Below, piece after piece: positions 1,023 through 33,636 of a stretch of DNA of 64,000 nt. This DNA comes from Escherichia coli. Lineage in GTDB: Bacteria; Pseudomonadota; Gammaproteobacteria; Enterobacterales; Enterobacteriaceae. Both the position numbers and the translations under genes were made by a program. The notes under the pieces were generated by a model. The model was not told the origin of the DNA, searched no databases, and worked only from the letters and a program-made list of their open reading frames with translations. Where the stretch lies: the NCBI RefSeq assembly GCF_044324785.1, contig NZ_CP172127.1; one strand, given 5' to 3'. Within the stretch, counting starts at the first letter, position 1, and each line of letters begins with the position of its first letter.

Positions 1023-1883
1023 ATGATCGCTATTACTGGTGCCACTGGCCAACTTGGTCATTATGTTATTAACTCCTTACTGAAAACCGTTCCTGCCAGC
1101 CAAATAGTGGCTATCGCACGTAACCCGGCAAAAGCGCAGGCATTGAGCGCGCAAGGCATTACTGTACGTCAGGCTGACTACGGCGATGAGGCCGCACTGA
1201 CATCTGCGCTTCAGGGAGTGGAAAAACTGCTACTGATCTCTTCCAGCGAAGTGGGGCAACGTGCCCCGCAGCATCGAAATGTTATTAATGCCGCTAAGGC
1301 GGCGGGCGTGAAACTTATCGCTTATACCAGCCTGCTACATGCAGATACCTCCCCGCTCGGCCTCGCCGATGAGCACATCGAGACGGAGAAAATGCTGGCT
1401 GATTCTGGCATCGTTTACACCCTGCTGCGCAACGGCTGGTACAGCGAAAACTACCTCGCCAGCGCCCCGGCAGCACTGGAACACGGCGTATTTATCGGTG
1501 CCGCGGGCGATGGCAAAATCGCCTCAGCAACGCGGGCAGATTATGCGGCAGCTGCGGCACGCGTGATTAGCGAAGCCGGTCACGAAGGCAAGGTTTACGA
1601 ACTGGCGGGCGATAGTGCCTGGACGTTGACACAGTTAGCGGCAGAGCTGACCAAACAGAGCGGAAAATCCGTTACCTATCAAAATCTGAGCGAAGCCGAT
1701 TTCGCCGCGGCACTGAAAAGCGTCGGACTGCCCGACGGACTGGCGGATATTCTGGCGGATTCCGACGTTGGCGCATCGAAAGGTGGTCTGTTTGATAACA
1801 GCAAAACGCTTAGCAAATTGATTGGCCGCCCAACGACAACATTAGCCGAGAGCGTAAGCCATCTTTTTAATGTTAATAACTAG
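1023..1883 (+). CDS. qorB: NAD(P)H:quinone oxidoreductase (NmrA-like)
   Basis: ORF 954..1883; 286-aa product from ATG 1023 (MIAITGATGQLGHYV... Rossmann motif). Confidence 0.85.
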   Translation: MIAITGATGQLGHYVINSLLKTVPASQIVAIARNPAKAQALSAQGITVRQADYGDEAALTSALQGVEKLLLISSSEVGQRAPQHRNVINAAKAAGVKLIAYTSLLHADTSPLGLADEHIETEKMLADSGIVYTLLRNGWYSENYLASAPAALEHGVFIGAAGDGKIASATRADYAAAAARVISEAGHEGKVYELAGDSAWTLTQLAAELTKQSGKSVTYQNLSEADFAAALKSVGLPDGLADILADSDVGASKGGLFDNSKTLSKLIGRPTTTLAESVSHLFNVNN

Positions 1884-1990
1884 TTAATTAAAGTGGCATC
1901 CTCCCGTATCCTCTCTGATAATGACGGGATGCGGGGAGCAATCATGTCTGCTTCCTGAACTTTCTTCTGACAGATCAATGGATGCCAGTA

Positions 1991-2956
1991 ATGATTAGCG
2001 GCGTGCTGTACGCCCTGTTAGCAGGGTTGATGTGGGGGCTTATTTTTGTCGGGCCGTTGATCGTGCCGGAATACCCGGCGATGTTGCAGTCTATGGGGCG
2101 TTATCTGGCGTTAGGGTTAATTGCGCTGCCCATTGCCTGGCTGGGACGCGTGCGTCTGCGTCAGTTGGCGCGTCGCGACTGGCTTACCGCCTTGATGCTC
2201 ACCATGATGGGCAACCTCATCTATTACTTCTGCCTTGCCAGTGCCATTCAACGTACTGGCGCGCCTGTTTCCACGATGATTATTGGCACCCTGCCGGTGG
2301 TGATACCTGTCTTTGCCAATCTGCTTTATAGCCAGCGCGACGGCAAACTCGCGTGGGGAAAACTCGCCCCGGCGCTGGTTTGTATTGGCATCGGCCTGGC
2401 GAGTGTGAATATTGCTGAGTTAAACCACGGACTCCCCGATTTTGACTGGGCACGTTATACCTCTGGCATCGTGCTGGCGTTAGTTTCCGTGGTCTGCTGG
2501 GCGTGGTATGCCCTGCGCAACGCCCGCTGGCTGCGGGAAAATCCCGACAAACATCCAATGATGTGGGCAACAGCGCAGGCGCTGGTCACGCTGCCGGTTT
2601 CTCTCATCGGCTATCTCGTCGCCTGTTACTGGCTGAATATACAAACGCCGGACTTCTCCTTACCTTTTGGCCCCCGTCCGCTGGTGTTTATTAGTCTGAT
2701 GGTTGCGATAGCCGTGCTTTGCTCATGGGTTGGCGCACTCTGCTGGAACGTCGCCAGCCAGCGATTACCGACAGTGATTCTCGGGCCGCTGATTGTTTTC
2801 GAAACGCTGGCAGGTTTGCTGTACACCTTTTTACTCCGCCAGCAAATGCCGCCGCTAATGACGCTGAGCGGTATCGCGCTGTTAGTGATTGGCGTGGTCA
2901 TCGCGGTCAGAGCAAAACCAGAAAAACCTTTAACTGAATCTGTCTCAGAAAGTTGA
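1991..2956 (+). CDS. ytfF: DMT-superfamily inner membrane protein
   Basis: ORF 1982..2956; highly hydrophobic multi-TM protein; start could be 1982 (MPVM) or 1991 (MISG). Confidence 0.8.
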   Translation: MISGVLYALLAGLMWGLIFVGPLIVPEYPAMLQSMGRYLALGLIALPIAWLGRVRLRQLARRDWLTALMLTMMGNLIYYFCLASAIQRTGAPVSTMIIGTLPVVIPVFANLLYSQRDGKLAWGKLAPALVCIGIGLASVNIAELNHGLPDFDWARYTSGIVLALVSVVCWAWYALRNARWLRENPDKHPMMWATAQALVTLPVSLIGYLVACYWLNIQTPDFSLPFGPRPLVFISLMVAIAVLCSWVGALCWNVASQRLPTVILGPLIVFETLAGLLYTFLLRQQMPPLMTLSGIALLVIGVVIAVRAKPEKPLTESVSES

Positions 2957-3063
2957 CACGCTGGCAGTGAGTTAAATAAGCCTCTGCTACGTAAGGGTTA
3001 TAGCATTTGCCTTAAAGATGCATTTAAAATGCACCTTATATTATTAAGAATGAGGTATCAGCT

Positions 3064-3726
3064 ATGGCTTATCGCGACCAACCTTTAGGTGAACTGGCGC
3101 TCTCTATTCCTCGCGCTTCGGCTCTGTTTCGTAAATATGATATGGATTACTGCTGCGGCGGTAAGCAGACGCTGGCGCGCGCGGCGGCACGTAAGGAGCT
3201 GGATGTTGACGTCATTGAAGCCGAACTGGCAAAGCTTGCTGAACAACCGATTGAGAAAGACTGGCGTAGCGCCCCGCTGGCTGAAATCATCGACCATATC
3301 ATCGTGCGCTACCACGATCGCCACCGCGAGCAGCTGCCGGAGCTGATCCTGCAAGCGACTAAAGTCGAGCGCGTTCACGCCGACAAACCGAGCGTGCCAA
3401 AAGGGCTGACAAAATACCTGACTATGCTGCATGAAGAGCTTTCCAGCCACATGATGAAAGAAGAGCAGATCCTCTTCCCGATGATCAAACAAGGCATGGG
3501 TAGCCAGGCGATGGGGCCAATCAGCGTAATGGAAAGCGAGCACGATGAAGCGGGCGAACTGCTGGAAGTGATCAAACACACTACCAATAACGTCACACCG
3601 CCGCCAGAAGCCTGCACCACCTGGAAAGCGATGTATAACGGCATTAATGAACTGATTGATGACCTGATGGATCACATCAGTCTGGAAAACAATGTGCTGT
3701 TCCCACGCGCGCTGGCGGGTGAGTGA
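3064..3726 (+). CDS. ytfE: Iron-sulfur cluster repair di-iron protein (RIC)
   Basis: 220-aa ORF with hemerythrin-like His/Glu motifs; matches YtfE. Confidence 0.9.
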
Positions 3727-5491: not shown

Positions 5492-6112
5492 TTAGAGGAT
5501 TTCCAGCAGTTCGACTTCAAACACCAGGGTGCTGAACGGAGGGATGGACGCGCCAGCGCCGCGCTCGCCATATGCCAGTTCCTGCGGGATAGTCAGTTCC
5601 CATTTAGAACCTACCGGCATCAGAGTCAGTGCTTCAATCCAGCCAGGGATCACGCCGTTAACCGGGAATTCAGCTGGCTCGCCGCGAGCAACGGAGCTGT
5701 CAAACACGGTGCCGTCGATCAGTTTTCCGGTGTAATGAACACGAACGCGGTCGGTACGTGCCGGAATTGCGCCTTCGCCCTGGTTGATCACGCGGAATTG
5801 CAGGCCAGATTCGGTGCTATTTACACCTTCTTTTTTGGCGTTTTCTTCCAGGTATTTCACACCTTCAGCAGCCATCGCCTGGAAACGCTGACGACGAACG
5901 GCATCGGCGCGTTCGTGGATTTCACGCAGCGCGCGGTGCACCACATCAACCGGAACAGCCGGATGTTTGCCTTCCAGCGCATCAGCAATGCCTGCAACCA
6001 GTGCTTCTGGCAGCAGCCCTTCCAGGCCAGATTCACTCAGTTGTTGCCCTACCTGCAAACCAATGCCGTAGCTTGCTTGCGCTTCGATGGTGTCAAAAGT
6101 TGGGGTGGTCAT
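5492..6112 (-). CDS. fklB: FKBP-type peptidyl-prolyl cis-trans isomerase
   Basis: ORF 5492..6271(-); 206-aa product from internal Met ([12 protein letters not shown]...), ATG complement at 6110-6112. Confidence 0.9.
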
Positions 6113-6329
6113 CGTATTTCCTTTCTTAGGGTATAAAGTAGCGGGCAGCATATCAGCCACACTTCTTTGGGTAAAACTTTGTCGCGGGAATGATGACAAA
6201 TCACGGGGAAAAAGAAACAATAGCAATATCCCGTATGAATATAATAAAGGCGGGTTTACCACGGACATCATAGCGTTAGCTTATTCATAGGCTATGATTG
6301 AGGAACAAGACGCGGAGCAGGAGGAAACC

Positions 6330-6968
6330 ATGCCCGGGCGCTTTGAACTAAAACCAACCCTGGAGAAAGTCTGGCACGCGCCGGACAATTTTCGCTTCAT
6401 GGACCCGCTGCCGCCGATGCATCGTCGGGGGATCATTATTGCCGCCATTGTATTGGTGGTCGGATTTCTGCTTCCATCTGATGATACGCCCAACGCGCCG
6501 GTGGTGACGCGTGAAGCGCAGTTAGATATTCAGTCGCAATCACAACCGCCGACAGAAGAACAGCTGCGGGCGCAATTAGTCACCCCACAAAATGATCCTG
6601 ATCAGGTGGCTCCGGTCGCTCCAGAACCTATACAGGAAGGCCAGCCAGAAGAGCAGCCGCAAACCACCCAAACGCAACCATTCCAGCCAGATAGCGGAAT
6701 TGATAATCAATGGCGCTCTTACCGTGTCGAACCCGGTAAAACGATGGCGCAGCTGTTCCGCGACCACGGACTGCCCGCTACCGATGTCTATGCAATGGCG
6801 CAGGTAGAAGGCGCGGGTAAGCCGCTGAGTAATTTGCAAAACGGGCAGATGGTGAAAATCCGCCAGAACGCCAGCGGCGTGGTGACGGGCTTAACCATTG
6901 ATACGGGGAATAATCAACAGGTCCTGTTTACCCGCCAGCCGGATGGCAGTTTTATTCGTGCGCGGTAG
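6330..6968 (+). CDS. ytfB: OapA/LysM-domain cell-division-associated protein
   Basis: ORF 6294..6968; 212-aa product from ATG 6330 ([10 protein letters not shown]...); Pro/Gln-rich linker, TM segment. Confidence 0.85.
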
Positions 6969-7623
6969 ATGAAGGATCAACCAAAAGCCAGCTAAGGAGC
7001 GTCTCTTTGATGACCTTACGTCTGGCTTCCAGTGCCTGGGGGGAAACCATACTGATATGATAAACTAGGCCAAGCGTATGCTGGTTGATCAAATAATATC
7101 CCCCAAGCGCAGCAATATTAATATTCACCTGCAATGGGTCGATATCTGGCTTAAAAATATTGTGTTTCTTCCCTTCATCCAATAAGGATTCCATTAACTG
7201 CAAGTGCGCATGGTTAATTTCTAAGAGACGCTGTGATTTTGCATAATGCACACCTTTACTTTGATTTTCACTATGCACAATTTTTAAAAACCAGGGGTTA
7301 GCAATATAATAATCCCATGTAAAATCAATAATTTTCTCAATGGCTTTTTGTGGCGGAAGATCTGAGAAATCAAGGGCCTTTTCTTTTTGTCGAATATCGT
7401 TCCAGGTATATTCCAGTACTTCAATAAATAAATTTTCTTTATTACCAAAGTGATGATAAACCGTCTGTTTACTACACCCCGCAGCCTTAACAATATTATC
7501 GACCCTGGCCCCTTCATAACCATATTCGGCAAATTCATTAACCGCGCATAACAGCAGCTTTTCCTTCAGGCTCTGTACGTTGCTGGTATCAAGATACATA
7601 ACGCTTCCCCACGACCTCTTCAA
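6952..7623 (-). CDS. TetR/AcrR-family transcriptional regulator (full-length; K-12 carries only a remnant, ytfA, as far as I recall)
   Basis: 223-aa ORF with N-terminal TetR helix-turn-helix (...[18 protein letters not shown]...); AT-rich; 3' end overlaps ytfB 3' end by 17 bp; divergent from the downstream operon. Confidence 0.75.
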
Positions 7624-7809
7624 GACAACTATCTTAACCCGATTAATTAGAAGCTCCAGTAAAAAGGATAAAAACTTGTACTTTCATCAAGTTATCAAAT
7701 GTCCTGTGATCACTATCGCATATCAACCAACCAGATGGTTGATCTTTCTTGCGGCACGTCGCAAGCTAATTGTCACTTAGAAACAATATTCAAAAAAGAG
7801 AGCTATTGT

Positions 7810-8601
7810 ATGAAATCCACTCGTCCTGTTGCCGTGATTACCGGAGCCGCTCGTGGTATTGGAAAGGGCTGTGCGCTGGAGCTTGCTCGTGGCGGATTTA
7901 ACCTGCTGATTAACGATCGCCCCGATGATGACAGCGTAGAAAAATTACATGCCACGCAACAGGAATGTCTGGCAGAAGGTGTGGAAGTGATTTGCTTCCC
8001 TGCCGATGTCGGCGATCTCTCCTTGCATGAAGAGATGCTCGACGCGGCACAAAACCAGTGGGGACGTCTGGACTGCCTGCTCAACAACGCAGGCATTTCA
8101 GTGAAAAAACGCGGTGACCTTCTCGACCTCGAACCAGACAGCTTCGACCAAAATATTGCCATTAACACCCGCGCACCGTTCTTCCTCGCTCAGGCATTCA
8201 GTAAGCGCTTACTGGCACAGCCGAAACCGGAAGCAGAACTGCCGCACCGCTCGATTATTTTTGTCAGTTCCATCAACGCCATCATGCTGGCGATGAATCG
8301 CGGCGAATATACCATTGCCAAAACTGCCGTCTCTGCCGCTGCTCGTCTGTTTGCTGCTCGGCTTTGTAATGAACAAATTGGCGTTTATGAAGTGCGTCCT
8401 GGTCTCATCAAAACCGATATGACTATTCCGGCAACGGCCTATTACGACGAACTGATTGCCAAAGGTCTGGTGCCGTGGGGACGTTGGGGTTATCCGGCTG
8501 ATATTGCTTCCACTGTCCGCGCGATGGCGGAAGGTAAACTGATTTACACCTGTGGTCAGGCGGTTGCCATTGACGGCGGCTTAAGTATGCCGCGTTTCTG
8601 A
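7810..8601 (+). CDS. Short-chain dehydrogenase/reductase (SDR)
   Basis: ORF 7699..8601; start at ATG 7810 with upstream aagagag SD; TGAARGIGKG Rossmann motif, NNAG, YxxxK (YTIAK) catalytic motif. Confidence 0.8.
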   Translation: MKSTRPVAVITGAARGIGKGCALELARGGFNLLINDRPDDDSVEKLHATQQECLAEGVEVICFPADVGDLSLHEEMLDAAQNQWGRLDCLLNNAGISVKKRGDLLDLEPDSFDQNIAINTRAPFFLAQAFSKRLLAQPKPEAELPHRSIIFVSSINAIMLAMNRGEYTIAKTAVSAAARLFAARLCNEQIGVYEVRPGLIKTDMTIPATAYYDELIAKGLVPWGRWGYPADIASTVRAMAEGKLIYTCGQAVAIDGGLSMPRF

Positions 8602-8610
8602 GGCTGAATC

Positions 8611-9453
8611 ATGAGAGATCTGTTACAACGCCCGGATTTATTCAGTATCAATACCGCGACACTGGGCTATAAAACGCCGCTTCCCGCCATTATTGATGCC
8701 TGCGCCGCACGCGGTATTGGCGCAATTGCCCCCTGGCGCAGGGAGTTGCAGGGTGAAGATCTCCAGCAAATCGCCCGCCAGCTTGCCGCCAGTAAGATGA
8801 ACGTTTCCGGTTTGTGCCGTAGCACTTACTACACCGCGCCGACACTGGCGGAACGCAAACTGGCGATTGATGATAACCGCCGGGCGCTGGACGACGCAGC
8901 GGTGCTTAACGCCGCCTGTTATATGCAGGTGGTTGGCGGGTTACCGCAGGGAACAAAAGATTTGTACGAAGCGCGGGAACAAGTAAAACAAGGGATTCGC
9001 CAGTTGCTGCCACATTCGAAAGATGTCGGCGTGCCAATTGCGCTGGAGCCGCTGCACCCGATGACTGCTGCCGACCGCTCTTGCCTGTGCACGTTACGTC
9101 AGGCGCTGGACTGGTGTGATGAACTCGATCCCGATGGTGAGTTTGGCCTCGGCGTAGCGGTAGATGTCTACCATGTCTGGTGGGACCCGGATCTCGCCAG
9201 CCAACTCCAGCGCGCCGGAAAACGCATCCTCGCGTTTCATGTTTCCGACTGGTTAGTACCAACCACCGATCTGGTCAATGACCGTGGAATGCCGGGAGAT
9301 GGCGTCATCAATATTCCGTCAATTCGTCGGCTGGTTGAAAACGCCGGATTTAATGGCGCTATTGAACTGGAAATATTCTCGCCGTACTGGTGGCAAAAAG
9401 ATATTAACAGCACGCTGGATATTAGCGTCGATCGCATCGCGCATTATTGCTAA
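8611..9453 (+). CDS. Xylose-isomerase-like TIM-barrel protein (sugar-phosphate isomerase/epimerase family)
   Basis: 280-aa ORF 10 nt downstream of the SDR gene; family assignment by sequence resemblance, not verified. Confidence 0.65.
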   Translation: MRDLLQRPDLFSINTATLGYKTPLPAIIDACAARGIGAIAPWRRELQGEDLQQIARQLAASKMNVSGLCRSTYYTAPTLAERKLAIDDNRRALDDAAVLNAACYMQVVGGLPQGTKDLYEAREQVKQGIRQLLPHSKDVGVPIALEPLHPMTAADRSCLCTLRQALDWCDELDPDGEFGLGVAVDVYHVWWDPDLASQLQRAGKRILAFHVSDWLVPTTDLVNDRGMPGDGVINIPSIRRLVENAGFNGAIELEIFSPYWWQKDINSTLDISVDRIAHYC

Positions 9454-9462
9454 GGAATGATT

Positions 9463-10239
9463 ATGAGTGACCAACCCGTTCTGTTCAGCAGAGCGGCGGC
9501 TTCCTGCCGTCTGACATTGAACCGTGAAGATAAATGTCATGCTATTAATGAAGAGATGATTGAATCTCTCGATCATTATTTAAATGAAATTGAAAACGAC
9601 ACCACATTACGATTAGTCGAATTAACGGCAACCGGCGATAAATTCTTTTGTGCGGGCGGCGATATTAAATCGTGGTCAGCCTATTCGCCATTAGATATGG
9701 GCAGAAAATGGATTAAACGCGGTAATGACGTTTTTAATCGCCTGCGCAACTTACCCCAATTAACCGTTGCAAATCTCAACGGTCATACCATCGGCGGTGG
9801 TATTGAACTTGCTTTGTGCTGCGATATTCGTATTGCCCGTCCCGGCGCGAAATTCTCTAACCCGGAAGTGATGCTCGGCATGGTGCCTGGCTGGATGGGC
9901 ATTGAACGTGTGCTTAATCAGGTCGGTCCGGTGGTCGGTCGCCAGATGCTGATGCTGGGTAAACGCCTGACGGCGCGGGAAGCTCAGGCGGCGAATTTAA
10001 TTGATGAAGTGGTAGAAAAAGAACAGGTGGAAAGCTGGATGGCGAACCAGTTAGCGCAGCTGGAAAAATGTGGTCCGGTGGCGCTCGCACATATCAAGCA
10101 ACTGATTCTGGCACTGGAAAATAAACATGCCGATTACCCGCACCAGCTACTGGCTGGATTAATGTCCGCCACTCAGGATTGCCAGCAGGCGACGCGCGCG
10201 TTTGCCGAAAAAAGTAGCGTGAGCTTCCACAATCAATAA
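9463..10239 (+). CDS. Enoyl-CoA hydratase/isomerase (crotonase) family protein
   Basis: ORF 9457..10239; FFCAGGDIK and GGG/EL crotonase motifs; aagga SD favours ATG 9463. Confidence 0.75.
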   Translation: MSDQPVLFSRAAASCRLTLNREDKCHAINEEMIESLDHYLNEIENDTTLRLVELTATGDKFFCAGGDIKSWSAYSPLDMGRKWIKRGNDVFNRLRNLPQLTVANLNGHTIGGGIELALCCDIRIARPGAKFSNPEVMLGMVPGWMGIERVLNQVGPVVGRQMLMLGKRLTAREAQAANLIDEVVEKEQVESWMANQLAQLEKCGPVALAHIKQLILALENKHADYPHQLLAGLMSATQDCQQATRAFAEKSSVSFHNQ

Positions 10240-10248
10240 GGAAATTGT

Positions 10249-11790
10249 ATGCGTAAGATAACAACCGCCGAGGCACTGGCGGCGCAAATTCAGGACGGCG
10301 CAACCATTGCCATTAGCGGTAACGGCGGCGGCATGGTGGAAGCTGACCATATTATGGCCGCCATTGAAGCGCGTTTCCTGCAAACCGGACACCCTCGCGA
10401 TCTGACATTGATCCACTCGCTGGGTATTGGCGATCGCGACAGCAAAGGCACTAACCGTTTTGCTCACGCCGAAATGCTCAAACGCATTATTGCCGGACAT
10501 TTTACCTGGTCGCCCAAGATGCAGGAACTGGTGAAAAGCAATGCTATTGAAGCCTACTGTTTCCCTGGTGGCGTGATTCAGGCGTTGCTACGGGAGATCG
10601 GTGCCGGACGTCCGGGGCTTTTTACCCACGTTGGGCTGGGATCGTTTGTTGATCCACGCAATGGCGGCGGTAAGTCGAATGAATGCACTACCGACGACCT
10701 GGTAGAACTGATTGAAATCGACGGTGAGACCAAACTTCGTTATCGCCCTTTCAAAGTGGATTACGCGATTTTGCGTGGCACTTATGCCGATCCACGAGGC
10801 AACGTTAGCCTCGAAGAAGAAGCGATTGATATGGATAGCTATTCGATGGCGCTGGCAGCACACAACAGCGGTGGCAAAGTGTTCGTACAGGTACGCGATG
10901 TGCTGGAAGCAGGTGCCATTGAACCACGCCGGGTTAAATTACCGGGGATTCTGGTTGATGGCATCGTTGAACACCGCGAACAGCCACAAACCTATCTTGG
11001 CAGTTACGACCTGACCATCAGCGGCCAACATCGCCGTCTGAGTTCTAACGACGCTATTGAGCTGGTTAGTCATCCGGTGCGTCGCCTGATTGCCCGTCGG
11101 GCAGCGCGGGAACTGGTGGCAGGCGCTTCAACCAACTTTGGCTTTGGTATTCCCGGCGGCATTCCAGGAGTAGCGCTGCGCGAAGGCGTGCCTTACCAAA
11201 GTTTATGGCTGAGCGTCGAGCAAGGCGTGCATAACGGTATGATGCTGGATGATGCGTTTTTCGGCTGCGCCCGCAACGCCGATGCCATTATTCCATCACT
11301 CGATCAATTTGAGTTCTACAGTGGTGGAGGGATCGATATCACCTTCCTCGGCATGGGAGAGATGGATCAGTACGGTAACGTCAACGTATCCCATCTCAAT
11401 GGCAATCTGATTGGCCCCGGCGGATTTCTCGAAATTGCGCAAAATGCCCGTAAAGTGGTGTTCTGCGGCACGTTCGACGCTAAAGGCAGCAAAATCGATA
11501 TAACGCCAGATGGCTTGCATATCGCCCAGTCAGGTCAAATCCCTAAACTGGTTACCCAGGTGGAAAAAATCACTTTTAGCGCCGCCTACGCACAGCAAAG
11601 TGGTCAGGAAGTGTTGTATATCACTGAGCGCGCAGTATTCCAGTTAACGGCAGAAGGCGTTGAATTAATTGAAATCGCGCCGGGTGTAGAGATTGAGCGC
11701 GACATTCTGCCGTTCATGGCTTTCCGTCCAATTATCAAGCACCCACGCCTGATGGAAAGTAGCCTGTTTACGCCGATGGAGGATGCATGA
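10249..11790 (+). CDS. Family-I CoA-transferase (acyl-CoA:acetate/3-ketoacid type, fused subunits)
   Basis: 513-aa ORF; resembles YdiF-like fused alpha/beta CoA-transferases; SD aagga upstream; translationally coupled to flanking genes. Confidence 0.7.
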   Translation: MRKITTAEALAAQIQDGATIAISGNGGGMVEADHIMAAIEARFLQTGHPRDLTLIHSLGIGDRDSKGTNRFAHAEMLKRIIAGHFTWSPKMQELVKSNAIEAYCFPGGVIQALLREIGAGRPGLFTHVGLGSFVDPRNGGGKSNECTTDDLVELIEIDGETKLRYRPFKVDYAILRGTYADPRGNVSLEEEAIDMDSYSMALAAHNSGGKVFVQVRDVLEAGAIEPRRVKLPGILVDGIVEHREQPQTYLGSYDLTISGQHRRLSSNDAIELVSHPVRRLIARRAARELVAGASTNFGFGIPGGIPGVALREGVPYQSLWLSVEQGVHNGMMLDDAFFGCARNADAIIPSLDQFEFYSGGGIDITFLGMGEMDQYGNVNVSHLNGNLIGPGGFLEIAQNARKVVFCGTFDAKGSKIDITPDGLHIAQSGQIPKLVTQVEKITFSAAYAQQSGQEVLYITERAVFQLTAEGVELIEIAPGVEIERDILPFMAFRPIIKHPRLMESSLFTPMEDA

Positions 11791-13859
11791 GTCAGCTTGA
11801 TGACACCATCCTTGATGCGCTGACGCACGTCACTTTCCCAAAGGGGTTTGTGTCAGCAGAGCCAACGTCAATTGTCACCGTTGAGGATGTTGATTACCCG
11901 ATCTGGCAAGTTGATGCGCTGGTCGTTGGTAGCGGCGCAGCAGGATTACGTGCGGCAGTTGAACTTAAACGCCGCCAGCAAAATGTGCTGATCGCCACCG
12001 CCGGGTTATATATGGGGACGTCGGCATGTTCTGGTTCCGATAAACAGACGTTGTTTACCGCCGCTACCGCGGGCAACGGCGACAACTTCGCCAAACTGGC
12101 AGAGGCACTTGCGAGCGGTGGGGCGATGGATCACGACACCGCTTATGTCGAAGCGGTAGGTTCTCTGCACACTCTTGGCGGGTTGCAATATCTTGGTCTG
12201 GAATTACCGGAAGATCGCTATGGCGCGATTCTTCGTTATCAAACCGACCATGACGAAGCCGGGCGTGCAACCTCGTGTGGGCCGCGTACCTCAAGGTTAA
12301 TGGTGAAAGTGCTGCTGGAAGAAGTACAGCGTCTTGCTATCCCAATGTTGACCAGTGCAACAGTGATTAAACTGCTGCATCAGCGTGACGAAAACGGCGA
12401 AGACCGCGTGGCGGGGGCTATCCTCGCGACCGGTCATCGCGCCCATAACCCATGGGGGCTGGCAATTGTGATTGCGCCCAATGTGGTACTGGCAACAGGA
12501 GGGCCTGGCGAGCTTTATCGCGACAGTGTGTACCCACACAAATGTTTCGGCTCGCTGGGTCTGGCGCTGGAGGAAGGTCTGACGCTAACGAATCTGACTG
12601 AAAGCCAGTTTGGTATAGGCACACCGCGCAGCACGTTTCCGTGGAATTTGTCCGGGACTTATGTACAGGTGATCCCATATATCTATTCCGTGGATGCTGA
12701 GGGTAACGAGTATAACTTCCTCGCGGATTACTATCGCACCACCCAGGAGCTGGCTTCAAACATTTTCCGTAAAGGCTATCAGTGGCCGTTCCACGCCACT
12801 CGGGTGATGGATTTTGGCTCCAGCTTGTTAGATATGGCAGTAGCGCAAGAGCAGCAATCAGGGCGTCAGGTATTTATGGATTTCAATCGCAATCCTGAAG
12901 CGGTGCCGGGTGACCTGCCCTTCTCATTAGATCGACTGGACGACGACGTTCGCGCGTATCTGGAAAATAACGACGCTCTGGCACCATCGCCCATCGAACG
13001 GCTGCAACGAATGAATCCGCTGTCTATCTCGCTGTATAAGATGCACGGTTACGATCTCACCACACAGCCATTGCAGTTTGCCATGAATAATCAGCATATG
13101 AATGGCGGCATTGAAGTCGATATCTGGGGACAAACATCTCTACCCGGTTGTTTTGCAGTGGGGGAAGTTGCTGGCACACACGGCGTCACCCGACCTGGCG
13201 GCGCGGCATTGAATGCCGGGCAGGTTTTTGCTGTTCGTCTGGCACGTTTTATTGGTTGCACGCAAAAGCGGAATATTGATGGAGATATAGCACAGCTGGC
13301 AGCTCCGGCACTGGCTTCTATAAGAGAGATCATTACTCAGGCGCACGATAACGGGACCGGGATGCCGTTGTCGGTTGTGAGAGAAAAAATTCAGGCACGA
13401 ATGTCTGACCATGCGGGATTTATTTGTCATGCCGATAAAGTCCGACGCGCCACTCGTGATGCCCTGCTATTGAACGAATTTGTCCAACGGCATGGATTGG
13501 CAATCAAACATGTGGGTGAAGTTTCCGAGCTGTTTATGTGGCGGCATATGGCGCTGACTTCTGCCGCGGTATTAACACAATTAACGCATTATATTGATGC
13601 TGGTGGCGGCAGTCGTGGGGCGCGGATGGTTATTGATCCACAAGGCAAATGCCTACCACAAACTCGTCGCGGCGTAAAAGAAGAATGGCGTTTTCGCTCT
13701 GAACTCGCTGAAGATAAAAATCACAAATTAACAATTCAATATTCGCAAGGTTCTTTTATTACCGAAGTAAAGTCTTTACGTATGCAACCGTGTATTAACG
13801 GTATTTACTTTGAAAAAAACTGGCCAGACTTTTTAAAGGGAGACATTTACACACAATAA
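11787..13859 (+). CDS. FAD-binding oxidoreductase, fumarate reductase/succinate dehydrogenase flavoprotein superfamily
   Basis: 690-aa ORF overlapping the CoA-transferase stop (ATGA); VVGSGAAGLRAA dinucleotide fold at residue ~46 and C-terminal GEVAGTHGVTRPGGAALN motif typical of FrdA/SdhA/NadB. Confidence 0.75.
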   Translation: MSQLDDTILDALTHVTFPKGFVSAEPTSIVTVEDVDYPIWQVDALVVGSGAAGLRAAVELKRRQQNVLIATAGLYMGTSACSGSDKQTLFTAATAGNGDNFAKLAEALASGGAMDHDTAYVEAVGSLHTLGGLQYLGLELPEDRYGAILRYQTDHDEAGRATSCGPRTSRLMVKVLLEEVQRLAIPMLTSATVIKLLHQRDENGEDRVAGAILATGHRAHNPWGLAIVIAPNVVLATGGPGELYRDSVYPHKCFGSLGLALEEGLTLTNLTESQFGIGTPRSTFPWNLSGTYVQVIPYIYSVDAEGNEYNFLADYYRTTQELASNIFRKGYQWPFHATRVMDFGSSLLDMAVAQEQQSGRQVFMDFNRNPEAVPGDLPFSLDRLDDDVRAYLENNDALAPSPIERLQRMNPLSISLYKMHGYDLTTQPLQFAMNNQHMNGGIEVDIWGQTSLPGCFAVGEVAGTHGVTRPGGAALNAGQVFAVRLARFIGCTQKRNIDGDIAQLAAPALASIREIITQAHDNGTGMPLSVVREKIQARMSDHAGFICHADKVRRATRDALLLNEFVQRHGLAIKHVGEVSELFMWRHMALTSAAVLTQLTHYIDAGGGSRGARMVIDPQGKCLPQTRRGVKEEWRFRSELAEDKNHKLTIQYSQGSFITEVKSLRMQPCINGIYFEKNWPDFLKGDIYTQ

Positions 13860-13951
13860 TTTTCAATATTTCCTCTGTACCTGATTTTTATTGCCTATTA
13901 CATGGAAATACCAACAACCAGGGTTTATTAATATAATTAAAAGGTTTAAAA

Positions 13952-15229
13952 ATGAATAAAATAAAGAATTATCGATGGCATATGATTGCCCTCGTATGCT
14001 TTATCACTGTAATCAATTATCTGGACAGAACGGCGTTAGGTATTGCGGCTCCAACGATTATGGAGACAACCGGAATAACTAAAGAGCAATATTCATGGAT
14101 TGTCAGTGCATTCCAGTTGGCCTATACATTAGGGCAACCGGTAATGGGCTTCTTTATTGATACCGTGGGTCTGAAGTTAAGTTTTGCGATATGTGCCGCA
14201 ATTTGGGGCCTGGCGACAATGGGCCATGCACTAACCGGAACGTGGTCTGGTCTGGCATTTATGCGCGCCCTGATGGGTTTCAGCGAAGCGTCGGCAATTC
14301 CGGCGGGTGTAAAAACCGCATCAACATGGTTCCCGGCAAAAGAGCGTGGCGTGGCGACAGGTGTTTTCAATATGGGCACCTCACTCGGCGCGATGCTTGC
14401 TCCACCGTTGATTGCCTGGTGCATTATGTTTCATAGCTGGCAATTTGCGTTTATTGTTTCAGGTAGCCTTGCTTTGCTCGCGGCTTTATTTTGGTTCTTT
14501 TGTTATAAAGATCCGAAAGATGCCAAACGCCTTTCTGATGAAGAGCGCCACTATATTGAATCAGGGCAAGAACAGCATCTTAAAACAGATAAGAAAGAAA
14601 AAACGTCAATCAAGCATATCCTCAGCCAACGTAATTTCTGGGGGATTGGCATCGCGCGTTTTCTCGCAGACCCGGCATGGGGAACCATTAACTTCTGGGT
14701 GCCGATTTTCTTCGTCGAAACGCTGCATTTTAGCCTGAAAGAAATTGCCATGTTCGTCTGGCTGCCTTTCCTGCTGGGCGATCTCGGCTGTTTAGCCAGT
14801 GGTTTTGTCGCGAAGTTCTTCCACGATCGCGGCGTGAGTTTAATTAACTCACGAAGAATTACCTTCACTATTGCAGCCGTCATTATGATGACGATTGGCC
14901 TGGTGAGTATTGTCGAAAATCCCTACATTGCCGTATTACTGATTAGTATTGGCGCGTTCTCGCATCAATGTCTTTCTACTGTAGCAGCAACTCTGGGTGG
15001 CGATCTGTTCAAAAAAGACGAAGTAGCTACCGCAGTGGGTATGGCAGGAGCCTGTGCGTGGAGCGGTCAGTTGATTTTCAACCTGTTCATCGGGGCATTC
15101 GTTCACATTATCGGCTTCGCGCCGTTCTTTATTGCCCTGGCTTTCTTTGACATTATTGGTGCTATTGCGTTGTGGACGCTTATCAAAGTTAAAGATGAAG
15201 AACCGCAAGTACAGCTAGCTACCCATTAA
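13952..15229 (+). CDS. MFS transporter
   Basis: 425-aa ORF with ~12 predicted hydrophobic helices; AT-rich codon usage. Confidence 0.75.
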   Translation: MNKIKNYRWHMIALVCFITVINYLDRTALGIAAPTIMETTGITKEQYSWIVSAFQLAYTLGQPVMGFFIDTVGLKLSFAICAAIWGLATMGHALTGTWSGLAFMRALMGFSEASAIPAGVKTASTWFPAKERGVATGVFNMGTSLGAMLAPPLIAWCIMFHSWQFAFIVSGSLALLAALFWFFCYKDPKDAKRLSDEERHYIESGQEQHLKTDKKEKTSIKHILSQRNFWGIGIARFLADPAWGTINFWVPIFFVETLHFSLKEIAMFVWLPFLLGDLGCLASGFVAKFFHDRGVSLINSRRITFTIAAVIMMTIGLVSIVENPYIAVLLISIGAFSHQCLSTVAATLGGDLFKKDEVATAVGMAGACAWSGQLIFNLFIGAFVHIIGFAPFFIALAFFDIIGAIALWTLIKVKDEEPQVQLATH

Positions 15230-15240
15230 TTATTTTAAAT

Positions 15241-15273
15241 AAAAACGCTATAATTGAGGTTATGGCGTTTTTA
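15241..15273 (+). terminator. Predicted rho-independent terminator after the MFS gene
   Basis: Hairpin acgctataa...ttatggcgt followed by a T-run. Confidence 0.5.
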
Positions 15274-15499
15274 AAGAAGCTTGAGTTATCGAACCTCGCT
15301 TACCAACGCGTTGTCAATCATATCCCCCCTCCCTGCTGCATCGTTATATCCACAATGAGCGATTTTTGATATTAATATCTTTCACCATCCGCTATTTTCA
15401 CTACTTCAGAAAACAAACTTATTTTTATTAATATCGATTCTTTATTCTGTAAACATTCAGCTGAGATATTTATAAAAACATTAAACAGGCAACGATACA

Positions 15500-16294
15500 A
15501 TGACATTACCAACCACTATTTATTCATTTCCTGCATATTCACCCCGTTTTTCGTCCACCGACAAACCAGTAAAATTAAAATTTCATCAATACGCACGCGC
15601 TACATTACTTTCAAATCGTGGAAGAGATCATAATTGCGATGGCAGACATACTGTTGAGATCCACAAACTAGATCTCTCAGACTGGCAAGCATTCAATAAA
15701 CTAGCGATGGCGTGTAATGCTTACGATGGAATAACAATGAATGGTGATAATTCTTTTGGATGGAACCATGAAGCTACATTAGATAATATTCACGCCCAGA
15801 AATACAATAAAGCTTACGCGGGTGCGAGGTTAACCGCAGAACTGAAATATTTATTGCAAGATGTCGAATCCTTCGAACCCAACAGTAAATACACAATACA
15901 CGAGGTTGTTTTGGGTCCAGGTTATGGTACTCCAGACTATACCGGCCAAACGATAGGATACGTTGTAACCCTTCCTGCCCAAATGCCTAATTGCTGGTCA
16001 TCTGAACTACCAACAATCGATCTTTATATCGACCAACTTCGCACTGTTACAGGCGTTTCTAATGCCCTCGGATTCATCATTGCTGCATTGCTAAACGCGT
16101 ATTCTGATTTACCCCATGATTTGAAAATTGGTCTGCGTTCCTTATCAAGTTCAGCAGCAATCTACTCGGGTTTGGGTTTCGAGCGAGTGCCGCAGGGCCG
16201 AGACATAAGGTGCGATCATATGCATCTAACGCCAGCAAACCATCCTGAATTATGGACACAAGAGAATGGTGAATGGATCTACTTGCGAAACTAA
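15500..16294 (+). CDS. yjfZ: DUF2686-family protein of unknown function
   Basis: 264-aa ORF; length and position next to rplI match K-12 yjfZ; AT-rich upstream region. Confidence 0.7.
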   Translation: MTLPTTIYSFPAYSPRFSSTDKPVKLKFHQYARATLLSNRGRDHNCDGRHTVEIHKLDLSDWQAFNKLAMACNAYDGITMNGDNSFGWNHEATLDNIHAQKYNKAYAGARLTAELKYLLQDVESFEPNSKYTIHEVVLGPGYGTPDYTGQTIGYVVTLPAQMPNCWSSELPTIDLYIDQLRTVTGVSNALGFIIAALLNAYSDLPHDLKIGLRSLSSSAAIYSGLGFERVPQGRDIRCDHMHLTPANHPELWTQENGEWIYLRN

Positions 16295-16316
16295 TACCTG
16301 ACGAAAAATAGAAAGC

Positions 16317-16343
16317 AAAACGCCGACCACTGGTCGGCGTTTT
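16317..16343. terminator. Bidirectional rho-independent terminator between convergent yjfZ and rplI
   Basis: Perfect hairpin aaaacgccgaccactggtcggcgtttt with A-run on one side and T-run on the other. Confidence 0.7.
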
Positions 16344-16364
16344 TACGTCTCGTTGAATAACGAA

Positions 16365-16826
<462 letters not shown>

Positions 16827-16855
16827 TCAAAGTCGTATTAATGGACCGTGACCGA

Positions 16856-17402
<547 letters not shown>

Positions 17403-31659: not shown

Positions 31660-32358
31660 TTACTCGCCCTGTTGGCGTTGCAGTCTTGCTAATACATCCT
31701 GGGCGCTACTTTTATTGCTACCGCCAATTCCGGCTTCCGCCAGCTTTTCATCAAGATCGCGACCGTCTGCGACTTTTTCCAACTGTGCGGCAGCATCCAG
31801 GCGAGCCTGACGTTCGGCCTGACGCGTTTGCAGGCGTTTTAAGGATTCTGCCGCTGTCGAAACGCTGGAAGATGCGCCAACGGTAGAGGTCGTTACAGCC
31901 TGTTGTGCACGCTGCATGGCTTCAGTAGCTTTAACGACTTCCATTTGCTGCTCAAACTGAGCGATACGCTGCGCTGTCGCTGTAACTGCTTTTTCCACAC
32001 CATCACGAGAGACTTCCAGATTCGACAATACTTGCTCTTCAGCGGTAATGAGATTCTCAAGGCGCGCGATTTCTTCAGCAACTTCGTTAATCAACGACGG
32101 ATTAACGTTCTTGCTTAACGCTTCCAGCGCACGAGCTTCCAGACTGGCTTTGCGCTCACGTAAATCTTTCAGCTTATCGTGACTTAATTTCACCCGTGCC
32201 AGCAGATCAACGCGAGATTTTCCGGCTTTATCGAGTTCAGCTTTAGCGTCACGAATATGCTGTTCCAGCATGCGCACGCCCTGGGTTTCTTCAATGGATT
32301 CTTCCGCCTGAGAGATAAACGATTTCCCCAGCGTAAATAAACTTTTTAAAATTCCCAT
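31660..32358 (-). CDS. yjfJ: PspA/IM30-family coiled-coil protein
   Basis: 232-aa ORF, almost entirely predicted coiled coil (heptad-rich, E/K/R/L/A-rich). Confidence 0.88.
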   Translation of the reverse strand: MGILKSLFTLGKSFISQAEESIEETQGVRMLEQHIRDAKAELDKAGKSRVDLLARVKLSHDKLKDLRERKASLEARALEALSKNVNPSLINEVAEEIARLENLITAEEQVLSNLEVSRDGVEKAVTATAQRIAQFEQQMEVVKATEAMQRAQQAVTTSTVGASSSVSTAAESLKRLQTRQAERQARLDAAAQLEKVADGRDLDEKLAEAGIGGSNKSSAQDVLARLQRQQGE

Positions 32359-32376
32359 AAATACCCGTCCTTGTAA

Positions 32377-32778
32377 TTAGTGTGAATATTCTTCTGTAAT
32401 TTCAGCCAGATCCAATGCGTTATCTACCAGCGAGGTTATCTCAAGCAGGATATCTTCAAGAGAAGATTTAAGCGATAACGCACCGAAAACAATGTAATAC
32501 TCTTCATGTTGCACGCTGGAGATCCCTACCGATGACAACGGCATCATCTTCTGATTTCTTAATAAGAAGGTATTAAATTCATCTGGATTGCTGATACTAC
32601 TTACCGGACAAATAAAGGTTTCGATAATCATTTGGCGGGAAATAAATAGAATATTGATTTGCAAATCGCCATAATCATTCATTTTAATAATTAATGCGTT
32701 CTCGCCATTTGTTACATCAATATTTTGTTCAGGTACAGTTTGCAGCGCCGTCGCCAGCGCCAACGGATTCCATGTCAT
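32377..32778 (-). CDS. yjfI: DUF2170 protein
   Basis: 133-aa ORF, first gene of the yjfIJKLMC cluster. Confidence 0.85.
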   Translation of the reverse strand: MTWNPLALATALQTVPEQNIDVTNGENALIIKMNDYGDLQINILFISRQMIIETFICPVSSISNPDEFNTFLLRNQKMMPLSSVGISSVQHEEYYIVFGALSLKSSLEDILLEITSLVDNALDLAEITEEYSH

Positions 32779-32904
32779 ATATTATTCCATATAAATTAAG
32801 TTTAAATATTAATAAAATGAATATTTGCAGTACGTAATTATCTTACCAGCTATAGACAAAAAAAAACCATCCAAATCTGGATGGCTTTTCATAATTCCGA
32901 GGAA

Positions 32905-33636
32905 TTAGCTGCGCTGTCGCACCGCTTCAAATAAGCAAATCCCTGTCGCAACCGAAACGTTCAGGGAAGAAACGCTTCCTGCCATTGGGATGCTGATCAA
33001 CTCGTCGCAATGTTCACGAGTCAGGCGACGCATACCTTCACCTTCCGCGCCCATCACCAGTGCCAGGCGTCCGGTCATTTTGCTCTGATAAAGTGTATGA
33101 TCCGCCTCACCTGCCGTACCGACGATCCAGATATTCTCTTCCTGCAACATACGCATGGTGCGCGCAAGGTTAGTCACCCGAATCAGCGGAACGCTTTCTG
33201 CCGCGCCGCAGGCTACTTTTTTCGCCGTGGCGTTGAGCTGTGCGGAACGATCTTTCGGCACAATCACCGCATGAACACCTGCGGCGTCCGCGCTACGCAG
33301 GCACGCGCCGAGGTTATGCGGATCGGTTACACCGTCGAGGATCAGCAGGAACGGTTGATCGAGCGAAGCGATCAGATCCGGCAGATCGTTTTCCTGATAC
33401 TGCCGTCCTGGCTTCACACGGGCGATAATGCCCTGATGCACGGCACCGTCGCTTTTCTCGTCGAGATACTGACGGTTCGCCAACTGGATAACCACGCCCT
33501 GGGACTCAAGGGCGTGAATCAGCGGTAACAGACGTTTATCTTCACGGCCTTTTAAAATAAAGACTTCCTGAAAACGTTCAGGGGCGCGCTCCAGCAGGGC
33601 CTGCACTGCGTGGATGCCGTAAATCATTTCGCTCAT
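32905..33636 (-). CDS. rlmB: 23S rRNA (guanosine2251-2'-O)-methyltransferase
   Basis: 243-aa SpoU-family ORF. Confidence 0.92.

Follow-up and report, generated by a model that had tools for sequence, protein, structure and literature searches.

In Escherichia coli, AcrR and EnvR (AcrS) are local TetR regulators, divergently transcribed from acrAB and acrEF, and their targets are efflux pumps. Bacillus FadR, Thermus PfmR and Mycobacterium KstR2 control operons that contain CoA-transferase, ligase and hydratase genes. A further TetR-family gene is known in E. coli K-12 as the pseudogene ytfA (PMC6790063; bioRxiv 10.64898/2025.12.20.695731). This remnant (b4205) overlaps the 3' end of its convergent neighbor, ytfB, by 17 bp. 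An E. coli genome has been reported to contain 75 convergent overlapping gene pairs, which were ascribed to stop-codon movement (PMC4161906): one gene reads through to the next in-frame stop codon, within its neighbor.

We analyzed a 64-kb stretch of E. coli chromosome (the window), in which the gene order is cycA - fklB - ytfB, a TetR gene, a six-gene operon, yjfZ, and then rplI-rpsR-priB-rpsF (Table 1). The TetR gene is the intact ortholog, in an ancestor-like form, of K-12 ytfA: it is the same gene, at the same site and with the same overlap with ytfB. K-12 keeps only the sequence equivalent to positions 6952–7354 of the window, at about 99% identity, and has lost by deletion the HTH domain, the six-gene operon and the divergent spacer between them, which are all intact here. 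At least 80% of the TetR gene and spacer is kept in 3130 of 5426 complete E. coli genomes, and the others have remnants that are either of the K-12 type or split by IS609. Annotation already exists for the gene, the overlap and the pseudogene relative, and the type of system is a textbook one. In the literature that we searched we did not find descriptions of the predicted operator and CRP-like site, the ancient and maintained GC contrast, or the map of structural alleles presented below, and searches on ytfA, yjfZ and combinations of product names returned no functional study and no binding, induction or expression data. We think it quite probable that the TetR protein is an ordinary local repressor of the divergent six-gene operon, acting through a conserved palindrome, that the overlap with ytfB is incidental, and that the AT-richness of the gene is old.

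Table 1. Features of the ytfB–yjfZ region, with positions in the window and base composition.
Feature	Position	Strand	GC	GC3	Basis or remark
ytfB, OapA/LysM-type cell-division protein	6330–6968	+			RefSeq start; stop TAG 6966–6968
TetR/AcrR-family regulator, 215 aa	6952–7599	-	0.397	0.398	Pfam, RefSeq (648 nt), AF2 model; stop TAA 6952–6954
17-bp coding overlap, tail-to-tail	6952–6968	both			ORF table and sequence
TetR C-terminal tail codons, residues 206–215, past last helix	6955–6984	-			Lineage-specific, variable; alignment and AF2
Left breakpoint of the deletion (K-12, O157) yielding pseudogene ytfA	7354–7355				Sequence comparison
Divergent regulatory spacer, 210 bp	7600–7809		0.381		
TetR Shine-Dalgarno GGGGAA	7605–7610	-			Kept across genera
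CRP-like site TGTGATCACTATCGCA	7705–7720				TGTGA-N6-TCACA with one mismatch
Predicted TetR operator ATCAACCA-N6-TGGTTGAT	7722–7743				Perfect inverted repeat
Operon gene 1: short-chain dehydrogenase/reductase (SDR)	7810–8601	+	0.530	0.519	Pfam, RefSeq and profile matches
Operon gene 2: xylose-isomerase-like TIM-barrel protein	8611–9453	+	0.553	0.587	
Operon gene 3: enoyl-CoA hydratase/isomerase family (ECH)	9463–10239	+	0.490	0.506	
Operon gene 4: fused family-I CoA transferase, YdiF/FadX-like	10249–11790	+	0.532	0.547	
Operon gene 5: 690-aa FAD-binding oxidoreductase, fumarate-reductase/NadB superfamily	11787–13859	+	0.516	0.499	
Operon gene 6: MFS transporter, anion:cation symporter (D-galactonate transporter) type	13952–15229	+	0.469	0.488	Exchangeable cassette
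yjfZ (DUF2686)	15500–16294	+	0.423	0.355	AT-rich separate cassette outside conserved module

The start codon of the TetR gene is the ATG at 7599, which gives a protein of 215 residues and the same 648 nt that RefSeq calls. A TTG at 7623, proposed by the ORF list, was rejected: the ATG and its GGGGAA are conserved across genera, but the bases upstream are not. Because TetR begins at 7599, the spacer is 210 bp long, and not the 175 bp (7624–7809) given in a preliminary description of this DNA. Searches of PDB and NCBIfam with the operon enzymes returned only generic names or uncharacterized close homologs, and we found no relevant paper for PDB entry 7VPF.

The protein has the features of the TetR/AcrR family that can be predicted from its sequence–an N-terminal HTH domain, an all-helical C-terminal ligand-binding and dimerization domain, and a palindrome in the divergent spacer. 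Pfam places TetR_N (PF00440) at residues 19–61 (E = 1.9e-14; 53.6 bits, the cut-off being 24) and TetR_C_29 at residues 83–200 (E = 6.9e-30). An AlphaFold (AF2) model built from 15 homologs has a pLDDT of 92 and consists entirely of helices, 11 in number. Its Foldseek matches are TetR regulators, including 3npi (TM 0.79–0.80), RutR (TM 0.72–0.73) and FadR; this comparison confirms the fold and gives no ligand class. Sequence similarity to AcrR and EnvR is confined mainly to the HTH region. The PDB and NCBIfam matches to Bacillus FadR (approximately residues 14–155 of the query), PfmR (11–150) and KstR2 (7–155) extend into the ligand domain. Even so, identity to these three regulators is only about 18–22%, all the scores are far below the NCBIfam cut-offs, and the best structural matches are an uncharacterized Corynebacterium protein and RutR. 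The Salmonella ortholog is labeled 'KstR2' in some databases.

The preliminary description had proposed that the divergent region be searched for a palindromic TetR operator. We found a candidate at 7722–7743, which is the sole inverted repeat with perfect 8-bp arms within the spacer. This 22-bp palindrome is unique in the window, where 0.15 matches are expected by chance, and it is invariant in 14 loci from five genera. In an alignment of 10 spacers from five genera, it lies in a 21-nt block, GATCAACCATCTRGTTGGTTG, that is invariant in sequences that otherwise average 48% identity, and the single variable base of the block falls in the central N6. Each of the 14 intact loci has one copy of the block, about 67 nt upstream of the SDR start codon, and 75 other loci have none. 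In the window the predicted operator ends 66 nt before this start codon. Since the repeat is also flagged by a terminator scan, with its 8-bp stem and 6-nt loop followed by CTTTCTT, it could in principle act as an RNA hairpin–a terminator or attenuator–instead of an operator. We regard this as extremely improbable: the T-run is weak, the repeat is upstream of both genes, in their divergent promoter region, an Rfam scan of positions 6000–17000 gave no matches to it or to anything else, and the repeat is invariant across genera with no compensatory changes, its variation being limited to the central base. Because it is the sequence, and not merely the pairing, that is invariant, we favor a site for protein binding.

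The predicted operator is adjoined by the CRP-like site, whose position is conserved in all genera and which is perfect in Leminorella. CRP-like matches in the window are as numerous as expected by chance, and it is conservation that marks this one as a candidate. A scan for sigma-70 promoters gave no match inside the spacer, and -10 and -35 elements placed by hand were unconvincing.

From this arrangement we propose that a TetR dimer would bind at the inverted repeat, between the CRP-like site and the first gene of the operon, and would block transcription of the operon until an inducer arrives. The inducer, a substrate of the pathway or a CoA-thioester intermediate, would bind the C-terminal domain and release the repressor. 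We suggest a CoA thioester because a CoA-transferase and an enoyl-CoA hydratase are among the operon's products, and because several of the nearer relatives with solved structures bind acyl-CoA; an acyl-CoA ligand is thus suggested by operon content. CRP would add catabolite control or co-activation. Judging by its gene content, the operon most likely encodes a conserved CoA-dependent catabolic pathway of E. coli, Salmonella and their relatives, comprising six genes that include a carboxylate transporter. In this the system would differ from those of AcrR and EnvR, the target here being a catabolic operon.

The preliminary description had also claimed that TetR, the spacer, the MFS gene and yjfZ are more AT-rich than the central enzyme genes. 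GC is clearly low in TetR, the spacer and yjfZ, and only modestly so in the MFS gene (Table 1). The 648 bp of TetR fall at the 1.9th percentile of windows of equal size across the 64 kb (mean 0.519, standard deviation 0.043), and TetR and the spacer share with xenogeneic DNA a GC content clearly below average. Flanking core genes have GC contents of 0.50–0.56, and among reference ORFs of at least 250 aa outside the locus none has a GC3 below 0.52. The GC profile has troughs at 7100–7400 (0.33–0.38), 13700–13900 (0.29–0.34) and 15300–15500 (0.32–0.33), of which the last two are the deepest and are short junction regions.

We divided the TetR deficit into its components by comparing the observed value (0.398) to the value expected from its amino acids and local codon usage (0.467) and to the mean of the reference ORFs (0.532). 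Amino-acid composition and the use of AT-ending synonymous codons each account for roughly half of the deficit. An AT-rich regulator beside targets of normal GC is a common situation–for example, in K-12 acrR has a GC content of 0.454 and acrAB 0.54, envR 0.442 and acrEF 0.52, and rutR 0.513 and rutAB 0.55, with no deficit in betI–and the TetR gene studied here is at the extreme end. Its GC differs by -0.13 from that of the enzyme genes, as compared to 0 to -0.09 for the four K-12 controls, and in distant homologs from high-GC genomes the shortfall relative to their own loci is 0 to 0.07. Because the deficit exceeds both sets of values, some factor beyond the general AT-richness of regulators may be acting on the GC content of this gene.

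From these GC differences the preliminary description had suggested a mosaic origin. To judge this we compared gene content, divergence and GC among genera; distant TetR homologs from Alphaproteobacteria, most of which have no enzyme set nearby, were left out of this comparison of context. TetR and the five enzyme genes are linked in Escherichia (including E. albertii and E. whittamii), Salmonella, Klebsiella spallanzanii, Entomohabitans and Leminorella. The module's location between ytfB and rplI is shared by Salmonella, Entomohabitans and K. spallanzanii, and in Leminorella it is at a different chromosomal site but still consists of TetR and the same six genes. TetR orthologs with 80–89% amino acid sequence identity are found in Salmonella enterica, Citrobacter, K. 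spallanzanii, Entomohabitans, Lelliottia and Leminorella. The divergence of TetR matches that of the enzymes: in comparisons to Salmonella, identity is 87% for TetR, 94% for SDR, 89% for the TIM-barrel protein, 88% for ECH, 89% for the CoA-transferase and 77% for the FAD oxidoreductase, and in comparisons to Leminorella it is 82% for TetR and 75–84% for the enzymes. The FAD gene evolves fast, and the Salmonella enzyme identities are 88–94% when it is left aside. GC content is also repeated gene by gene across four genera, at 0.39–0.41 in TetR, 0.45–0.48 in the MFS gene, 0.48–0.52 in ECH and 0.53–0.60 in the other enzymes.

At four-fold degenerate sites, the TetR genes of E. coli and Salmonella are only 33% identical, which is saturation, yet GC4 in TetR is 0.51 in E. 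coli and 0.52 in Salmonella, as compared to 0.58–0.76 in the neighboring genes of the operon and the flanking genes. Because these sites are saturated and GC is still low in both species, the low GC is maintained and is not an unameliorated relic. A mosaic origin is therefore not borne out for TetR, which has the same partners, a matched divergence and the same GC pattern in other genera, and our sequence comparisons do not support the idea that it is a recently added piece. By the same comparisons, its AT-richness is a long-standing and module-intrinsic property that is maintained in every lineage, and no mark of recent foreign origin. The suggestion holds for the slot that contains the MFS gene and yjfZ, which is the only part of the locus where we found the signs of recent or separate acquisition.

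In other E. coli strains this slot (13851–16311) contains a TRAP or a hipBA-like cassette instead. Homology to an allele that carries TRAP genes (ETEC6) ends at 13850 and resumes at 16312, and homology to the hipBA-like allele ends at 15273. E. whittamii has no yjfZ, and the MFS protein is 51% identical to that of Salmonella and 90% identical to that of Leminorella. Mosaicism is also seen elsewhere in the locus: a patch of the FAD gene at 13200–13600 has 72–81% identity to strain N3, compared with about 100% outside it, and in strain 492 a block at approximately 6200–7800, which spans ytfB, TetR and the spacer, is 71–85% identical between flanks that are 95–100% identical. In about 7% of E. 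coli genomes, identity in the ytfB-TetR block is only 71–85%. Among the 5426 complete genomes, approximately 390 have an allele with 80–90% identity and 1249 have one with 90–95%. The divergent TetR allele of strain 492 has a GC content of 0.393 and the same operator.

The preliminary description further raised the possibility of H-NS-type silencing at the ends of the operon. Through their AT-richness the TetR gene and spacer would plausibly be good substrates for H-NS, and silencing is possible. In this view, the AT-rich ends (TetR, the spacer, the MFS gene and yjfZ) would be foreign pieces joined to an enzyme core of normal GC, with H-NS silencing the operon from these ends. GC is 0.37–0.40 over approximately 0.9 kb at the left end, the two right-hand troughs fall to 0.29–0.34, and the transporter and yjfZ slot is truly exchanged between strains. 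Positions 7639–7648 match 9 of the 10 bases of the high-affinity H-NS motif; motif matches overall are at the level expected by chance (14 found and 15.7 expected). Promoter-like sites lie within the AT-rich body of TetR (7283–7325), and E. coli has divergent ytfB-TetR haplotypes. Genomic SELEX located an H-NS site in the yjfZ/ytfA spacer of K-12, and the envR/acrE spacer was likewise marked as bound by H-NS (PMC3946193), but the yjfZ/ytfA site was detected in vitro and in the arrangement left by the K-12 deletion. The inheritance of TetR together with the enzymes in five genera, at matching divergence and with a matching GC pattern, also speaks against foreign ends, and saturation of the silent sites makes an unameliorated foreign signature untenable. 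We therefore consider this explanation possible but doubtful.

In another reading, the low G+C of TetR is actively maintained, and the gene body and spacer form a nucleation platform for H-NS that would add a third layer of control to the TetR operator and the CRP-like site. Its basis is that GC3 is approximately 0.40–0.45 in every genus despite saturation, with a deficit larger than in other TetR genes. We think it unlikely. If it were true, three-layer control would govern a CoA-dependent pathway for a carboxylate that is imported by interchangeable MFS or TRAP transporters.

As the preliminary description had noted, the TetR stop codon lies 17 bp inside the end of ytfB, and the ORF table and sequence agree that 6952–6968 is common to both coding regions. 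The two genes are on opposite strands, they share 17 bases at their 3' ends, and both have Pfam domains and orthologs. The overlap contains the stop codon, codons 212–215 and part of codon 211 of TetR, and, from ytfB, the stop codon, the last four codons and part of one more. RefSeq annotates an identical overlap in E. coli N3, K-12 (where TetR is the pseudogene), ETEC6, AVS0155 and O157:H7, and E. albertii, E. whittamii, Salmonella and K. spallanzanii also share these 17 bp.

The constraint on this overlap is asymmetric, with a conserved ytfB end and a free TetR tail. YtfB ends in ...SFIRAR*, of which FIRA(R/Q) is conserved in all the genera compared. TetR tails vary by genus (PSSTAHE, NNATARE, KASIWRE): the Escherichia, Citrobacter and Salmonella proteins carry 6–7 extra residues, and those of Entomohabitans, Lelliottia, Leminorella and remoter relatives stop at ...SWLL plus 1–3 residues. 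In the AF2 model the final helix stops at residue 205, and the pLDDT is 47 for residues 211–215, which the overlap encodes. Entomohabitans has a 15-bp gap between the two stop codons, and DNA alignment indicates that the Escherichia-type junction is shorter by about 14 bases. We suggest that because this tiny spacer is missing from Escherichia, Salmonella and K. spallanzanii, TetR would read on for about six residues further, to a TAA that is antisense to the conserved Phe-Ile codons (TTT-ATT) of ytfB. In E. coli strain 492 these codons are TTC-ATC, and the TAA of TetR abuts the TGA of ytfB, which is a 0-bp allele; overlap-free alleles thus exist. The pair fits the pattern of stop-codon movement described for other convergent overlaps, with nothing unusual about it, and we read the overlap as an incidental consequence of a stop-codon shift, with no evident function of its own and preserved because the C-terminus of YtfB is constrained.

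It is also conceivable that the overlap is functional, and that convergent transcription or complementary 3' ends couple ytfB and TetR by antisense pairing or transcriptional interference. The 17 bp are conserved across Escherichia, Salmonella and K. spallanzanii, and neither a terminator scan nor RNA folding (z = -1.6 and -1.0) found a canonical intrinsic terminator between or just past the two stops. Because of this, the ytfB and TetR transcripts, which were previously said to overlap of necessity, probably do so if both genes are expressed, and the true RNA overlap probably exceeds 17 nt. However, the overlap is missing from Entomohabitans and from the approximately 7% of E. coli genomes that have the 0-bp allele, the TetR residues encoded there are variable and disordered, and K-12 retains the overlap unaltered with a TetR gene that is defunct. 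Constraint on the C-terminus of YtfB is enough to explain its conservation, and we consider a functional overlap very improbable.

Our interpretation of the locus as a local repressor and its catabolic operon explains what the K-12 pseudogene ytfA formerly was, and shows that the working gene is still present in over half of the complete E. coli genomes. It also provides an orphan operon with a concrete predicted operator, at 7722–7743, and with a candidate CRP site. More generally, the history of the TetR gene is a caution that a sharp GC contrast in the region of an operon need not signal a recent mosaic acquisition.

In E. coli strain 492, we found that ytfB, the TetR gene and the spacer beside it form a deeply divergent block, with 71-85% nucleotide identity to the window and flanks at 95-100%. 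The stop codons of ytfB and TetR adjoin in this strain without any overlap (TGA-TTA), and its TetR protein is 212 amino acids long. Alleles in the 80-90% identity class occur in approximately 390 of 5402 genomes.

Features of the window and their positions in comparison loci
Feature	Window	Comparison locus
Divergent haplotype block of strain 492 (ytfB, TetR, spacer)	~6200-7800	L089 (strain 492) 10352-11829
IS609 within the TetR remnant of O157:H7	7059 (insertion point)	L005 (O157:H7) 1876-3607
Overlapping sigma-70-like sites, antisense in TetR	7283-7325 (+)	
SDR gene remnant in the K-12 ytfA-yjfZ spacer	7899-8000	L001 (K-12) 2654-2755
TIM-barrel protein gene	8611-9453	
Low-identity patch in the FAD oxidoreductase gene (3' part)	13200-13600	
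Transporter/yjfZ slot	13851-16311	L003 (ETEC6) 8654-11594; L004 (AVS0155) 10078-12284
Fourth low-GC stretch of the window	32151-33099	
133-aa ORF spanned by that stretch	32377-32778	

The spacer between ytfA and yjfZ in K-12 retains a remnant of the SDR gene, about 100 bp long. Because its identity is only 79%, the K-12 state is not one clean deletion, and it may derive from a divergent allele. The TetR remnant of O157:H7 contains IS609 (tnpA and tnpB/InsQ), which splits it into two annotated pseudogene pieces; the same insertion is present in many other strains. Within the AT-rich TetR coding region of the window there are three overlapping sigma-70-like sites, the best of which is TTTAAA-16-TATAAT (10/12), but the number of such sites in the region is not significantly greater than in shuffled sequences (5 vs 2.9).

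Across window positions 6200-17000, E. coli N3, a strain with an intact locus, is approximately 100% identical to the window except toward the 3' end of the FAD oxidoreductase gene, where identity is only 72-81%. Among Escherichia strains whose other enzymes share 95-100% identity, the figure for the FAD protein is 91-93%. Either a patch of recombination or rapid evolution of the C-terminal region seems to be involved. Very close homologs of the TIM-barrel protein have been solved, none with an assigned function: PDB entries 3qc0 and 3ju2 (SMc04130; E ~1e-85) and 7vpf (E = 7e-61).

A fourth low-GC stretch, with a minimum of 0.366, spans a 133-aa ORF that is flanked by a PspA-like gene and rlmB; it has no relation to the TetR/ytfB finding.

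Cassettes are exchanged at the transporter/yjfZ slot. ETEC6-type strains have a TRAP system (small permease, large permease and binding protein) in place of the MFS gene and yjfZ, and in AVS0155-type strains a hipA/HTH pair substitutes for yjfZ alone. The MFS protein shares only 51% identity with the Salmonella protein at the slot position.
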